Assembly: GCF_013167455.1 (NCBI RefSeq) | Contig: NZ_CP038328.1 | Strand: one strand, 5' to 3' | Length of the DNA stretch: 64,000 nucleotides | Source of the DNA: Escherichia coli O157:H7 | GTDB lineage: Bacteria; Pseudomonadota; Gammaproteobacteria; Enterobacterales; Enterobacteriaceae | In this document: positions 1-6,000 of the stretch, one piece after another | Numbering within the stretch: the first letter of the stretch is position 1 | Layout of the letters: each line of letters opens with the position of its first letter | Position numbers: made by a program

Positions 1-3000
1 TGACGTAGCGGCAGAAGGTGCCGATGCCACCATCACTTCCGATAACACCCAGGCAGGCGAAATGGCCTGTAAATACATCACCGATCGCCTGAAAGGCAAA
101 GGCAACGTGGTGATCATCAACGGCCCGCCGGTATCCGCCGTGCAAAACCGCGTCGAAGGATGCCAGACTGAATTTAAACGCCATCCTGACATCAAAGTGC
201 TCTCTGACAACCAGAACGCGAAAGGCAGTCGTGAAGGCGGGCTGGAGGTAATGACGGGACTGCTGGCGGCAAATCCGAAGATCGACGGCGTATTTGCGAT
301 TAACGATCCCACCGCAATCGGTGCCGATCTGGCAGCAAAACAGGCACAACGTAACGAGTTCTTTATTGTCGGTGTGGACGGAAGCCCGGACGCCGAAGAG
401 GCGCTCAAGCGTGAGAACTCGTTGTTTGTCGCTACTCCGGCGCAAGATCCCCAGGTGATGGCAGCGAAAGCGGTGGAAATTGGCTACGACATTTTGCAGG
501 GCAAACCTGCGCCGAAAGAGCCGGTGCTGATCCCGGTGACGATGATCGATAAAAACAACGTCGGCAATTACAAAGGCTGGACGGTGAAATAAGTCCACAC
601 GCCGGGCGGCGCAGCTGCCCGGTCACCGCTAAGGAGAACGCTTTCGATGAAACGCTCCGCTATAAACGACATTCTCGGCCATACACGGCAATTCTTTTCG
701 CAACATGACGTACATCTGCCGCCCTTTGCCAGTTTCTCGCCTGCTCAATGGCAGCAGCTCGACACCGCCGCGTGGGAGGAGGTTTTTGATCTTAAACTCG
801 GCTGGGATGTTACCGCTTTTGGTCGCAACAACTTTGCAGCACACGGGCTGACGCTGTTTACCCTACGTAACGGCTCAGCAAAAGGAATGCCGTATGTGAA
901 ATGTTACGCCGAGAAGATCATGCATGTGCGCGATGCGCAGGTCACGCCAATGCATTTTCACTGGCGTAAGCGTGAGGACATTATCAATCGCGGCGGCGGT
1001 AATTTAATTGTTGAACTGTGGAATGCCGATAGTAACGAGCAAACGGCTGATAGTGACATTACGGTGGTGATAGACGGCTGCCGCCAGAAACATACTGCAG
1101 GCTCTCAGTTGCGCCTGTCTCCCGGCGAAAGTATCTGCCTGCCGCCCGGCCTGTATCACAGCTTTTGGGCAGAAGCCGGTTTTGGCGATGTGCTGGTTGG
1201 CGAAGTCTCTTCTGTTAATGACGACGACCACGATAACCACTTTTTACAGCCACTGGACCGCTACAACCTGATTGACGAAGACGAACCTGCACAGTTGGTA
1301 TTGTGTAACGAATACCGCCAGTTCCGCTGAATAAGGATAACGTTATGCCATTGATTTCTCTCGCTGAAGGGCTGGCACATGCCCGCGAACATCACTATTC
1401 GTTAGGTGCGTTTAATGTGCTGGACTCGCACTTTTTACGCGCCTTGTTTGCTGCTGCCAGACAAGAACGTTCGCCCTTTATTATCAACATTGCCGAAGTA
1501 CATTTTAAATATATCTCGCTGGATTCCCTGGTCGAGACAGTGAAATTTGAAGCGGCGCGTCATGACATTCCGGTGGTGTTAAATCTCGATCACGGACTGC
1601 ATTTTGAATCGGTGGTGCAAGCGTTGCGGCTGGGATTCAGCTCGGTAATGTTTGATGGCTCCACGCTGGGGTATGAAGAAAATGTCCGCCAGACGCGGGA
1701 AGTGGTGAAAATGTGCCATGCCGTTGGCGTATCGGTAGAAGCTGAACTGGGCGCGGTGGGTGGCGACGAAGGCGGTGCACTCTATGGTCATGCCGATGAA
1801 TCCCTGTTTACCGATCCGCAACTGGCGCGTGATTTTGTCGACCGTACCGGCATTGACGCGCTGGCCGTGGCGATTGGCAATGCACACGGCAAATATCGCG
1901 GCGAACCGAAACTCGATTTCCCGCGCCTCGACGCTATCCGCCAGCAGGCTGCTATCCCGCTGGTATTACACGGCGGCTCAGGGATTAGCGATGCCGATTT
2001 CCGCCGCGCCATCGAACTGGGTATCCACAAAATCAATTTCTACACTGGCATGTCGCAAGCGGCGCTGGCTGCCGTTGAGGCCCGAATGGCGCACCGTCAG
2101 CCGATGTATGACGAGTTTGCCGAGTTACTGCTGGCAGTGGAAGCCGCCATCAGCGATACGGTTGCACAACAGATGCGTATTTTTGGCAGTGCGGGGCAGG
2201 CATGATGGAGCGTAAAGGGATTATCGCCGCAGGCAATATGTTGGTTGACCACGTCCATCAGATTATCCAGTGGCCAGAGCGCGGCTGGCTGGCGGAGATC
2301 ACCCACAGCGAACGCTCCACCGGCGGTGCGCCGCTTAACGTCCTGCTGACGCTGGCGAAAATGCGCACCGGGCTGCCGTTACAGGCGGTTGGGCTAATCG
2401 GTCAGGACAGCGACGGCGATTACATCATGGCGATGCTTGAGCAATATCACGTCAATCGTCAGCATGTGCAGCGCACTACCTTTGCCCCGACGTCGATGTC
2501 GCAGGTGATGACAGACCCAAGCGGGCAGCGGACGTTTTTCCATTCGCCGGGTGCAAACAGACTTTTGGATCTTCCGGCGTTCGATCAGCTCGATAACACC
2601 ATGAAGATTTTCCATCTCGGCTATTTACTGTTGCTCGACAGCCTGGATATGCCGGACGATGTTTACGGCACCCGTAGCGCACGCCTGCTGGCGCAAATGC
2701 GTGATACTGGCTTTGAAACCTCACTCGACCTGGTCTCCCGTAAGGGCGATCCGCGTTATCAGCCGCTGGTGCTGCCCGCGTTGCGCCATCTGGATTATCT
2801 GGTAATTAACGAACTGGAGGCCGGGGAGTTTAGCGGGCTGGAAATTCGGTTACCCAACGGCGAACCGCATATCGCGCATATTGCTGCCGCCGCGCGTGAA
2901 CTGTTAGATGCGGGCGTGCGCCAGCGGGTGGTGATCCACTACCCGGAAGGGGCGTGGGGAGAGACCCCAGAACAGGGCGGCGTGTGGATCCCTTCGCAAA

Positions 3001-6000
3001 AGTTAGAACAACGGGAAATTATCGGCAGCGTCGGCGCGGGCGATGCATTTTGTGCCGGATTTTTATATGGCTGCCATGAACGCTGGACGCTTACCGAGAG
3101 CATCAAACTGGCACACGCCTGCGCGCGGGCAAGCCTGTTATGCGCCAATGCCATCGACGGGGCGAAAACGCTGGAAGAGCTGCAAACAGAAATGTCGGAT
3201 TAATGCACGTCGGCAGCGAAGACATACCCCAGACCGCGCAGAGTTTTAATCAACATCGGCTGATGCGGGTTGAGTTCGATTTTGCGTCGTAAGCGCATGA
3301 TTAATACGTCGATGGTGCGATCAAACACCTCCACGCTGTCGCTGTGGGTGAACGCCAGCAACTGCTCGCGGCTCAATACCCGACGCGCGTTTTGCGCCAG
3401 AGCCAGTAACAAGCCATATTCGCCCTGAGTTAACTCGACATGTTGCTGAAGCGGATTGTGCAACTGGCAGCGCATGGTATCGAGATACCAGCCATTGAAT
3501 GACAGCCCGGCGCTTTTCTCGTCATTAACCGCCAGCGCGCCAACCCGTCGCAACACCGCTTTCAGTCGTGCGACCACCACCCGCGGGGTGAACGGTTTGC
3601 AGATGTAATCATCCGCGCCCATTTCCAGCCCGACCACCACATCAGACTCACTGCCCATGCCGGTCAACATCACCACCGGCAATGTCGGACGCAGTTTCTG
3701 GATTTGCTGCAATACCCTCAGGCCGTTGGTATCGGGTAGCATCATATCCAGCACCACCAGCGCAATGTCAGGATCGCCCTCAATACGCAATATGGCCTCC
3801 TGTCCGGTATGGCAGACTGAAACCGTAAAGACATGTTCACTTAACACGTCCTGCAACAGTGCGCAGATAGCCGTGTCATCATCCACCACCAGCACGACGG
3901 GTTTCATGGTTACACTCCGCATCATTCATCTGATTAATCATTGTGCGTACTTCTTGTCGAAGTGAAAGCTGAAAGTAATATAAATAATAAAAATATAAGT
4001 CAGGTCACATTATTGATGATAGTAATAAATATGTCGTACTTTTCCCTCTTCAGCACAAATGCCTAATAAAATGGATCGTTCCGCTCACACTTCCACTTAT
4101 TAAAGTCGCAATTTCCCAATTATGATAACGCCAGCTTTAAATGACGTATTTTGCATGGATTACATATTTACGACATAAATGATAAATGGAGATTTATATG
4201 AATAACTCTCGGTTATTCCGTTTGAGCAGGATTGTTATTGCGTTAACTGCCGCCAGCGGCATGATGGTAAATACCGCTAACGCGAAAGAGGAAGCGAAAG
4301 CCGCCACTCAATATACCCAACAGGTTAATCAGAATTACGCCAAATCATTACCGTTTAGCGATCGTCAGGATTTTGACGATGCCCAGCGTGGATTTATCGC
4401 CCCGCTGCTGGATGAAGGTATTCTGCGTGATGCGAACGGTAAAGTTTACTACCGCGCAGACGATTACAAATTTGATATTAATGCCGCTGCGCCGGAAACC
4501 GTAAACCCCAGCCTGTGGCGTCAGTCGCAGATCAACGGCATTTCTGGCCTGTTCAAAGTCACCGATAAAATGTATCAGGTGCGCGGCCAGGATATCTCTA
4601 ACATTACGTTCGTTGAGGGGGAGAAAGGCATTATTGTCATCGACCCGCTGGTGACGCCGCCTGCCGCAAAAGCCGCACTTGACCTTTACTTCCAGCATCG
4701 TCCGCAAAAACCGATTGTTGCCGTTATCTACACTCACAGCCACACCGACCACTATGGTGGCGTGAAAGGCATTATCTCTGAAGCCGATGTTAAATCCGGC
4801 AAAGTTCAGGTGATTGCCCCTGCTGGCTTTATGGACGAAGCCATCAGCGAAAACGTGCTGGCGGGTAACATCATGAGCCGCCGTGCGCTCTACTCTTACG
4901 GTCTGTTACTGCCGCACAACGCGCAAGGCAACGTGGGTAATGGCCTTGGCGTGACGCTGGCAACGGGCGACCCGAGCATTATTGCACCGACTAAAACTAT
5001 CGTCAGAACTGGCGAGAAGATGATTATCGACGGCCTGGAGTTTGACTTCCTGATGACCCCAGGTAGCGAAGCGCCAGCCGAAATGCACTTCTATATTCCG
5101 GCCCTGAAAGCCCTGTGTACCGCCGAGAACGCCACGCATACCCTGCACAACTTCTACACTCTGCGCGGCGCGAAAACCCGCGATACCAGCAAGTGGACCG
5201 AGTACCTGAACGAAACGCTGGATATGTGGGGTAACGACGCGGAAGTACTGTTTATGCCGCACACATGGCCGGTCTGGGGCAATAAGCATATCAATGATTA
5301 TATTGGTAAATATCGCGATACTATCACGTTCATTCACGACCAGACCCTGCACCTGGCGAACCAGGGCTACACCATGAATGAAATCGGCGACATGATTAAG
5401 CTGCCGCCTGCACTTGCCAATAACTGGGCCAGCCGTGGCTATTACGGTTCTGTCAGCCACAACGCCCGCGCGGTGTATAACTTCTATCTTGGCTATTACG
5501 ACGGTAACCCGGCTAACCTGCATCCGTATGGTCAGGTAGAGATGGGCAAACGTTACGTGAAAGCGCTGGGCGGCTCTGCCCGTGTCATCAACCTGGCGCA
5601 AGAAGCGAATAAGCAAGGTGATTACCGCTGGTCGGCAGAACTACTGAAACAGGTGATTGCCGCCAACCCGGGTGACCAGGTGGCGAAGAATCTGCAAGCG
5701 AATAACTTTGAACAGCTGGGCTATCAGGCCGAGTCCGCCACATGGCGCGGTTTCTACCTGACCGGCGCGAAAGAGCTGCGCGAAGGGGTGCATAAGTTCA
5801 GCCACGGCACCACCGGTTCCCCGGACACCATTCGCGGAATGTCGGTCGAAATGCTGTTCGACTTTATGGCCGTTCGCCTCGATAGCGCGAAAGCTGCGGG
5901 TAAAAATATCAGCCTGAACTTCAATATGAGCAACGGCGATAACCTCAACCTGACGCTGAACGATAGCGTGCTTAACTACCGTAAAACACTGCAACCGCAA

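Follow-up and report, generated by a model that had tools for sequence, protein, structure and literature searches.

The lmu/lmv island and its genes

The window analysed in this study is a stretch of 64,000 nucleotides from Escherichia coli O157:H7, and its positions 1-3925 are, with hardly any room for doubt, the right-hand half of O-island 167 (OI-167). This island holds an operon for the uptake and catabolism of lyxose and mannose with its own two-component regulator, in place of the allose operon of K-12. The locus is real and not new, three papers (2010, 2022 and 2023) having dealt with it before, and no observation speaks against this identification. The lmu and lmv gene names are taken from Yang et al. 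(mBio 2023; PMC10128022), Liu et al. (PNAS 2022; PMC9860305) described the LmvK/LmvR system as the riboflavin sensor RbfSR, and a review identifies RbfSR with LmvKR (PMC11644481). In the RefSeq annotation of an O157 genome, to which positions 1-4185 of the window are 100.0% identical, the gene order is lmvK on the minus strand, lmuX-lmuY-lmuZ-lmuI-lmuA-lmuK on the plus strand and lmvR on the minus strand. Its open reading frames are real genes and not chance, every one of them being annotated in O157:H7 chromosomes that match the stretch at 100% identity. The gene set that the original prediction had placed in positions 1-3925 was thereby confirmed, including the ATGA overlap of kinase and aldolase genes and the convergent regulator.

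The window starts inside lmuZ and so leaves out lmvK, the lmuX promoter, lmuX and lmuY, which are located upstream. The 3' part of lmuZ (positions 1-592, plus strand) is an open frame from the window start, the gene beginning 350 nt before the window; the full gene encodes 313 amino acids (positions 13651-14592 of the 32-kb locus L001; RefSeq). Truncated LmuZ matched RbsB/AlsB-type sugar-binding proteins in NCBIfam, every match being below the cut-off. The gene is named in PMC10128022, and its product is the periplasmic sugar-binding protein of the CUT2-type ABC importer LmuXYZ. It is followed by lmuI (Z5688; 647-1330, plus strand), which encodes a cupin D-lyxose/D-mannose isomerase of 227 amino acids that passes the corresponding equivalog NF051472 with 440.3 bits against a cut-off of 350 (Pfam Lyx_isomer) and is identical in 227 of 227 residues to the crystallised Z5688 (PDB 3KMH/3MPB; 2010). 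The next gene, lmuA (1345-2205, plus strand; 286 amino acids), encodes a predicted member of the class II (TIM-barrel, metal-dependent) ketose-bisphosphate aldolase family. LmuA passes the ketose 1,6-bisphosphate aldolase equivalog NF005284 (class II, Pfam F_bP_aldolase) with 579.7 bits against a cut-off of 406, and its nearest solved relatives are class II FBP aldolases, KbaY and YdjI. A tagatose-6-phosphate-epimerase-like role for LmuA was considered and dropped, an Agrobacterium enzyme having been the only pointer to it.

The lmuA stop codon overlaps the start of lmuK (2202-3203, plus strand; 333 amino acids) by 4 bp, ATGA. LmuK is a PfkB-family sugar kinase for which only weak PfkB/ribokinase-family matches were obtained, the best NCBIfam equivalog scoring 72 bits against a cut-off of 300; PF00294 (PfkB) is recorded on proteins identical to LmuK. 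Convergent with lmuK is lmvR, or rbfR (Z5684, EDL933_5428; 3200-3907, minus strand), encoding an OmpR/PhoB-family response regulator. Its reading frame can be extended to 3200-3925 (minus strand, 241 amino acids) from an upstream in-frame ATG at 3925, the RefSeq start being at 3907. The stop codons of the two convergent genes overlap in the sequence TTAA (3200-3203) without any spacer, and no terminator-like site was found between them.

An AT-rich, island-specific spacer containing the lmvR promoter region (3908-4035) separates lmvR from the backbone, as seen in the alignment to K-12 and from the LmvR autoregulation described in PMC10128022. The right junction lies at about position 4036, K-12-type genomes matching from 4036 onward only, and near-identity to K-12 begins at about 4037 in the alignment; no nucleotide similarity to K-12 was found inside the island. 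The alkyl sulfatase gene yjcS (4198-6183, plus strand), with 98.4% DNA identity to K-12, is a backbone gene flanking the island and not a member of it. The two flanks of OI-167 are yjdP and yjcS, matching the description in PMC10128022.

The synteny comparison with K-12 and O157 genomes that had been suggested as a check gave a clear picture, in that rpiB-alsR-alsB-alsA-alsC-alsE-alsK fills the yjdP-yjcS interval of a K-12-type genome and the O157:H7 sequence is 100% identical to the window. The same slot, together with a CUT2-type ABC importer, the family common to AlsBAC, is what could speak for orthology, with divergence, to alsBACEK, the allose operon of K-12, a reading to which we give practically no credence. 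LmuX and AlsA are only 40%, LmuY and AlsC 38% and LmuZ and AlsB 30% identical, and BLASTP (E <= 1e-3) matched none of the other five island proteins (isomerase, aldolase, kinase, histidine kinase and regulator) to RpiB, AlsR, AlsE or AlsK. The enzyme families differ as well, with a cupin, a class II aldolase and a PfkB kinase here as opposed to an RPE-type epimerase and a ROK kinase in als, and the island lacks nucleotide similarity to K-12. Orthology is ruled out by this protein comparison (transporter 30-40%, no enzyme or regulator match), and the prediction that the cluster is not the K-12 allose operon holds.

Distribution and conservation

The island was present in 410 of 5,426 complete E. 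coli genomes and is strain-variable content, as had been expected. Both the mBio 2023 and the PNAS 2022 papers report a strong association with O157:H7, O55:H7 and O145:H28; the E. coli carriers in our count also include pig, chicken, goat and human isolates without an O157 or O145 label. Outside E. coli, the order of the eight genes is kept in most of 56 loci from about 55 other species of Enterobacteriaceae, mostly not attaching-effacing pathogens (Kosakonia, Buttiauxella, Lelliottia, Phytobacter and the Citrobacter freundii group). The Citrobacter module adjoins homologues of yjdP and yjcS, and between Citrobacter and E. coli the island (73-85%) and the flanks (76-79%) have diverged about equally.

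The word-indexed protein search with LmuK listed 120 matches, all of at least 82% identity and with uninformative names, and the distant relatives came from a search at the level of 50% clusters. These distant relatives pair repeatedly with a lyxose isomerase or with the aldolase; those at 42-50% identity adjoin a lyxose isomerase, the aldolase or a mannitol dehydrogenase. In a more distant version of the module, the kinase of which is 50% identical, a xylulokinase belonging to the module (TIGR01312; 577 bits against a cut-off of 380) is encoded between the genes for the binding protein and the isomerase.

Published phenotypes and proposed pathway

The tests of growth on rare sugars and of knock-outs that the original prediction had called for are already in the literature, where mutants in lmuI, lmuZYX, lmvK or lmvR are impaired in growth on D-lyxose (PMC10128022). 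The substrate range of the isomerase, also proposed for assay, is published too, the substrates of Z5688/EcSI being D-lyxose and D-mannose (van Staalduinen et al., J Mol Biol 2010). For mannose, LmuI has a Km of about 20 mM, and the lmu operon, the six genes of which are co-transcribed, supports growth on mannose only in a manA mutant with lmvR over-expressed (PMC10128022). LmuK phosphorylates fructose in an assay that reads out ADP formation with fructose only, and lmuK and lmuA are dispensable for growth on lyxose (PMC10128022). The isomerase, kinase and aldolase route for a rare sugar that had been proposed from the gene set is thus borne out in its isomerase activity and in the fructose kinase LmuK, and the full route stays a model because lmuK and lmuA are dispensable on lyxose.

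Published experiments show that LmuXYZ imports an aldose and that LmuI converts D-lyxose to D-xylulose and D-mannose to D-fructose. We infer that the lyxose-derived D-xylulose may pass to the host xylulokinase XylB, so that growth on lyxose would need neither lmuK nor lmuA. The role of LmuK and LmuA would be in the hexose branch, from fructose via a fructose phosphate to trioses.

The regulator LmvK/LmvR and its sites

LmvK is a hybrid histidine kinase with HAMP, HisKA, HATPase and receiver domains; an HPt domain was looked for in LmvK and none was found. The best NCBIfam matches of LmvR are OmpR, VirG and PhoB, all below the cut-off and with VirG second-best. The LmvK sensor region had no significant sequence match in the PDB, and the fold search returned helical sensors of the TorS, PilJ and McpS type only at E > 1e-3, which is to be read as a hint.

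LmvK/LmvR switches the operon on with mannose or lyxose (mBio 2023). LmvR binds the direct repeat ATATGA-N3-ATATGA in the lmuX promoter, as footprinted in PMC10128022, in which autoregulation of LmvR is also reported. In the 32-kb locus this box has one exact match (L001, positions 11054-11068), about 2.9 kb upstream of the window and 73-87 nt upstream of the lmuX ATG, and in other genera 51 of 51 orthologous loci have kept it at this position. The lmvR promoter (window positions 3908-4185) contains no N3-spaced LmvR box with up to 2 mismatches; the rest of the window has seven box-like matches, a number compatible with chance (3.5 on average in shuffled sequence, with seven reached in 7 of 100 shuffles). 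Promoter and terminator scans of the island likewise gave counts not above the shuffled expectation.

The convergent gene had been recognised in the original prediction as a response regulator only; as one half of LmvK/LmvR (RbfS/RbfR), it drives the operon and also activates the LEE virulence genes. By activating ler, LmvR/RbfR turns on the type III secretion genes of LEE, and phosphotransfer from Z5692 to Z5684 and binding at the ler promoter have been described (PMC9860305). The two papers name different signals for LEE activation, mannose (mBio 2023) and riboflavin (PNAS 2022), and the ler-promoter sites that they report differ. A search of the island and its flanks for the 21-bp RbfR site of ler (TCTCACATAATTTATATCATT), allowing up to 3 mismatches, gave no match, and the absence of such a ler-type site says nothing about the regulation of the lmu operon.

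Function of the island

In mouse colonisation, lmuKAIZYX is dispensable and lmvK and lmvR are needed (PMC10128022). Together with the induction of LEE by riboflavin and mannose via LmvKR/RbfSR and with the strong association with O157:H7, O55:H7 and O145:H28 in both papers, this would fit an O157:H7 island that is a recently and horizontally gained virulence-signalling device, in which LmvKR/RbfSR acts on LEE and the catabolic genes of the window are passengers. We regard this as a possible but less probable account, as about 55 species, mostly not attaching-effacing pathogens, have kept the complete module including the LmvR box in front of the transporter genes, the Citrobacter copy lies beside yjdP and yjcS homologues and has diverged about as much as they have, the E. 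coli carriers extend beyond the O157 and O145 labels, and the catabolic genes are intact in the 100%-identical O157 copies. We prefer to see the module as what may be an old enterobacterial catabolic unit, the regulator of which would have been wired to LEE later.

A different question is which sugar this catabolic unit serves. The native substrate might be neither lyxose nor mannose as such, with LmuK forming a ketose 1-phosphate (e.g., fructose 1-phosphate) that LmuA cleaves directly, which we consider rather unlikely. Three divergent contexts have the aldolase-kinase pair with its 4-bp overlap, and in two of these the isomerase is missing; a kinase that formed only fructose 6-phosphate or xylulose 5-phosphate would make the aldolase superfluous. 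The poor affinity of LmuI for mannose and the K-12 precedent of the PfkB kinase YdjH with the class II aldolase YdjI, both among the nearest solved relatives, point in the same direction. However, other kinase relatives lie beside a lyxose isomerase or mannitol dehydrogenase and have no aldolase near, as would suit an ordinary fructose 6-kinase; the published assay recorded ADP formation with fructose only, and the NCBIfam name of the aldolase is ketose 1,6-bisphosphate aldolase. It is a doubtful proposal, for which we would put the chances as low, that LmuK and LmuA form a coupled cassette in which fructose 1-phosphate from mannose-derived fructose is split into DHAP and an aldehyde, and not a fructose 6-kinase with a spare glycolytic aldolase. 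If true, the cassette would be a soluble, PTS-independent enterobacterial route resembling ketohexokinase and aldolase B.

In the EHEC lineage that is the most dangerous, the island links type III secretion to a host-mucus sugar and reportedly also to riboflavin from the microbiota, and its position in place of als also takes away the allose and RpiB functions. This biological significance is already published, and the present finding adds no new knowledge on it. The additions made here are modest: the conservation of the module and the LmvR box, the count of E. coli carriers and the pairings of the kinase relatives. With the module at the same locus in Citrobacter and widespread in non-pathogenic Enterobacteriaceae, the label "EHEC-specific, horizontally acquired" is questionable.

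Comparison with known systems

K-12 rpiB-alsRBACEK resembles the island in its yjdP-yjcS slot and its CUT2-family ABC sugar importer. The als transporter is paralogous (30-40%), its enzymes are the epimerase AlsE, the ROK kinase AlsK and the isomerase RpiB, and it is controlled by the RpiR-type repressor AlsR, whereas the lmu island has a two-component system.

The regulator resembles VirA/VirG with ChvE of Agrobacterium, as a CUT2 sugar-binding protein is encoded beside LmvK/LmvR and, among named equivalog models, a VirA-like one ranks third for LmvK after two CckA models; since none of the LmvK/LmvR scores reaches a family cut-off, the likeness does not amount to membership. By analogy, it is a possibility that a sugar signal reaches the VirA-like LmvK via the binding protein LmuZ, with no separate Hpt protein involved. 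The targets differ, being the vir genes in one case and the sugar operon and LEE in the other. Compared with TorS/TorT/TorR, LmvK has a periplasmic domain predicted to be all-helical, and the top structural matches of this domain include the double four-helix-bundle sensor of TorS, with E-values above 1e-3 and TM-scores of 0.3-0.5 that amount to a weak fold likeness, and TorT is related to sugar-binding proteins. A similarity of 43% to TorS and 56% to TorR was noted in PNAS 2022 (PMC9860305). LmvK is nevertheless not a TorS-type sensor kinase, as it reaches only 144 of the 677 bits and 90 of the 982 bits required by the TorS equivalogs and lacks the C-terminal HPt domain of TorS; ligand and regulon also differ.

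In K-12 YdjH/YdjI, a PfkB kinase and a class II FBP-aldolase-family enzyme are paired in a sugar catabolic cluster, as are LmuK and LmuA, the relation being distant (kinase E ~ 1e-7). The substrates of YdjH and YdjI are long-chain ketose acids. The L-fucose (FucI/FucK/FucA) and L-rhamnose (RhaA/RhaB/RhaD) pathways follow the same isomerase, kinase and aldolase logic as drawn in Fig. 3A of mBio 2023. Their folds are unrelated, with FGGY kinases and AraD-type class II aldolases as opposed to PfkB and the TIM-barrel FBA family in lmu, and their 1-phosphate chemistry is for LmuK/LmuA hypothetical only. OI-167 of EDL933 (lmvR-lmuKAIZYX-lmvK; Yang et al., mBio 2023) is the same locus as that of the window, which aligns with Z5684-Z5689 and shares with it the gene order, the flanks, the isomerase protein and the LmvR box, with no differences.

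Gene content of the segment and published work

Window positions 1-3925, which match E. coli O157:H7 chromosomes at 100% identity, form the right-hand half of O-island 167 (OI-167). Open reading frames and NCBIfam profiles confirmed the gene content of the original prediction, namely the 3' end of a periplasmic binding protein gene, a cupin isomerase, a class II aldolase, a PfkB kinase and a convergent regulator. From the window start to 592 (plus strand), an open frame encodes the C-terminal part of LmuZ, an RbsB/AlsB-like periplasmic sugar-binding protein, which missed every NCBIfam cut-off. 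It is followed on the same strand by lmuI (647-1330; D-lyxose/D-mannose isomerase; NF051472, 440 bits, cut-off 350), lmuA (1345-2205; class II ketose 1,6-bisphosphate aldolase by profile; NF005284, 580 bits, cut-off 406) and lmuK (2202-3203; PfkB-family kinase by NCBIfam, without a close named equivalog), the lmuA stop codon and the lmuK start codon overlapping in ATGA. The gene of the OmpR/PhoB-family response regulator LmvR (NCBIfam; ORF 3200-3925, minus strand) is convergent to lmuK, and both stop codons lie within one TTAA at 3200-3203. Since the spacer is 0 and no terminator-like hairpin was found between lmuK and lmvR, their transcripts must, judging from the sequence, each run into the opposite gene.

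LmuI matches the protein crystallised for PDB 3KMH/3MPB, termed ‘D-lyxose isomerase’, at every residue. It corresponds to Z5688 (van Staalduinen et al. 2010), for which later papers quote activity on D-lyxose and D-mannose and state a kcat/Km ratio of 0.75. The regulators Z5684 and Z5692 were located in ‘OI-167’ and named RbfR and RbfS by Liu et al. (PNAS 2022, PMC9860305), who showed riboflavin-stimulated autophosphorylation, phosphotransfer and binding to the ler promoter. Yang et al. (mBio 2023, PMC10128022) cover the whole island, with the same regulators as LmvR and LmvK, and a 2024 review handles RbfSR and LmvKR as a single system (PMC11644481). According to Yang et al., all six lmu genes share a transcript, the LmvR footprint in the lmuX promoter is on an ATATGA-N3-ATATGA repeat (-41 to -62), and LmvR regulates itself and activates the LEE. 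Growth on D-lyxose was impaired by deletion of lmvR, lmvK, lmuI or lmuZYX, and lmuK and lmuA were dispensable; fructose-kinase activity was measured for LmuK, and a manA mutant with over-expressed lmvR grew slowly on mannose via the lmu operon (PMC10128022). The predicted isomerase, kinase and aldolase route for a rare sugar is the same as the model in their Fig. 3A (PMC10128022), and the experiments proposed along with it have already been done. As the isomerase, the two-component system, the whole island, the route model and the experiments are all in the literature, the feature is real and its first reading correct, wholly anticipated by published work and thus already known.

Chromosomal position and relation to the allose operon

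In O157, the neighbourhood comprises the phn operon, yjdP, the hybrid sensor kinase gene (minus strand), the genes of the ABC ATPase, permease, binding protein, isomerase, aldolase and kinase (all plus strand), the response regulator gene (minus strand), yjcS, ytcA and mdtNOP. A K-12-type genome carries rpiB-alsR-alsB-alsA-alsC-alsE-alsK in the yjdP-yjcS interval, and similarity to K-12 restarts at about window position 4036. An orthology of the cluster to alsBACEK was considered and rejected: the importer proteins are only 40% (LmuX/AlsA), 38% (LmuY/AlsC) and 30% (LmuZ/AlsB) identical, and none of the OI-167 enzymes and regulators matched an als product. Synteny and protein comparison therefore agree that the cluster is not the K-12 allose operon, as had been predicted. 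With identities of 30-40%, LmuXYZ and AlsACB are paralogues within one transporter family.

A third allele of the interval is found in E. coli STEC1589, where both the als operon and OI-167 are missing and solely a truncated rpiB, an RpiB-family remnant of 318 nt, is left. In such genomes, the match to the window begins at 3977 (~91% identity), in K-12-type genomes at 4036.

In RefSeq, a near-identical O157 genome is annotated with further genes of the window that are possibly O157-specific: the T3SS effector gene espX5 (~27259-28551) and the genes of a 119-aa hypothetical protein (~41320-41679), a DUF2713 protein (~49018-49974) and a SopA-family protein (~58013-59593). Their surroundings are standard backbone (nrf, acs, soxRS, uvrA, dnaB, lexA, plsB, mal).

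Distribution and age of the island

The island is present in 410 of 5,426 complete E. coli genomes, in every case on the chromosome, which bears out the predicted strain-variable content. All four E. coli carriers whose neighbourhood was inspected have it at the yjdP-yjcS position. Most copies (393/410) are at least 99% identical, some of them from pig, chicken and human isolates that bear no O157 or O145 label. By isolate label, these carriers soften the published restriction of the system to O157:H7, O55:H7 and O145:H28 (PMC9860305, PMC10128022). The other 17 copies are more divergent. Two of them, at the same locus, are decayed, each with deletions in the neighbouring phn operon: in goat isolate R32_14_1F (92.8% identity) an internal deletion joins the 5' end of the aldolase gene to the 3' part of the kinase gene, and in pig isolate LHM10-1 (97.0%) the sensor kinase is frameshifted.

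With one genome scanned per species, lmuK orthologues of 78-93% identity were found in about 55 other Enterobacteriaceae species, including the Citrobacter freundii group, Phytobacter, Buttiauxella, Kosakonia, Lelliottia, Pseudescherichia, Atlantibacter and Cedecea, and most of these loci have the complete eight-gene order. In Citrobacter, the module adjoins a yjdP homologue and is followed by yjcS in one locus; DNA identity to O157 is 73-85% in the module and 76-79% in the yjdP/yjcS flanks. The module thus looks like a long-standing resident of this chromosomal position and not like an import from a distant donor. Two assemblies labelled ‘Yersinia pestis strain NCTC5923’ and ‘Chryseobacterium sp. 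18061’ hold a typical Enterobacteriaceae module with a kinase 79-80% identical, so that their labels look wrong or the assemblies contaminated.

The LmvR box occurs as one exact copy in the 32-kb O157 locus, 73-87 nt 5' of the lmuX ATG and ~2.9 kb before the window begins. It is kept with at most two mismatches, at -85 to -106, in 51 of 51 orthologous loci that have the ATPase gene and at least 200 nt of upstream sequence. Because of this and the eight-gene order in most loci, the wiring of the two-component system to the operon is ancestral, present in bacteria mostly without LEE. An LmvR-like repeat with one mismatch (ATATGAAAAATATAA, window 15838-15852) overlaps the gltP start and is within chance for the window; gltP is not listed in Table 1 of Yang et al., which gives the combined RNA-seq/ChIP-seq targets (PMC10128022).

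Metabolic route

The cited papers demonstrate that LmuXYZ mediates uptake, that LmuI is the isomerase, that LmuK phosphorylates fructose and that LmvK/LmvR induces the operon by way of the direct repeat. The D-xylulose formed from lyxose would be phosphorylated by the host XylB, since a distant version of the module on metagenome contigs (L063/L064, 1-9766), whose lmuK relative is 50% identical, has its own xylulokinase gene between binding protein and isomerase (TIGR01312, 577 bits, cut-off 380). Such a role of XylB would account for the dispensability of lmuK and lmuA on lyxose. The distant module adjoins malT-malP-malQ, and its sensor kinase is longer (872 aa) with a PAS_7 domain.

The LmuK family is broad and comprises 321 cluster representatives (E <= 1e-30). 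Eight were looked up, and seven have sequenced neighbours, the contig of the eighth being too short. The kinase gene lies directly 3' of a lyxose isomerase gene in two cases, one beside a GH38 alpha-mannosidase, 3' of a mannitol dehydrogenase gene in one, and 3' of a class II aldolase gene with the identical 4-bp overlap in three, one of which is the orthologous module itself, isomerase included; two have no informative neighbour. Based on these neighbours, the LmuK-type kinase is predicted to act on free intracellular fructose, which fits mannose as a physiological substrate. Joint action of the two enzymes is suggested by the repeated pairing of aldolase and kinase genes; a putative ketose-1-phosphate route through LmuK and LmuA is, in our view, unlikely.

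Sensor and signal transfer

LmvK contains HAMP, HisKA, HATPase and receiver domains; no HPt domain was found in it, and residues 1-310 are without a Pfam match. The best models for its cytoplasmic part are a generic histidine-kinase subfamily, CckA and a VirA-like hybrid kinase, all below cut-off, and the second-best model for LmvR is VirG, likewise below cut-off. Residues 1-320 give an all-helical AlphaFold model (pLDDT 82), whose main biologically interpretable structural matches are the sensor domains of TorS, PilJ and McpS, albeit only at E > 1e-3 and TM 0.3-0.6.

Conservation between the O157 locus and the orthologous loci of other genera is very uneven. Of the module proteins, the binding protein varies least (88-97% identity, mostly 94-97%) and the sensor kinase most (63-82%); the permease has 88-97%, the enzymes have 73-93% and the regulator has ~64-80%. 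The unusual constraint on the binding protein might be due to an additional partner, e.g., the sensor kinase.

Domain content, model scores, fold matches and conservation pattern together make a putative direct His-to-Asp transfer from LmvK to LmvR and sensing through the binding protein possible. The direct transfer would fit the in vitro phosphotransfer (PMC9860305) and, if true, would make the ‘unknown Hpt’ of the mBio model (PMC10128022) unnecessary. LmvK may possibly perceive its signal through the binding protein in the same way as in the ChvE/VirA or TorT/TorS systems.
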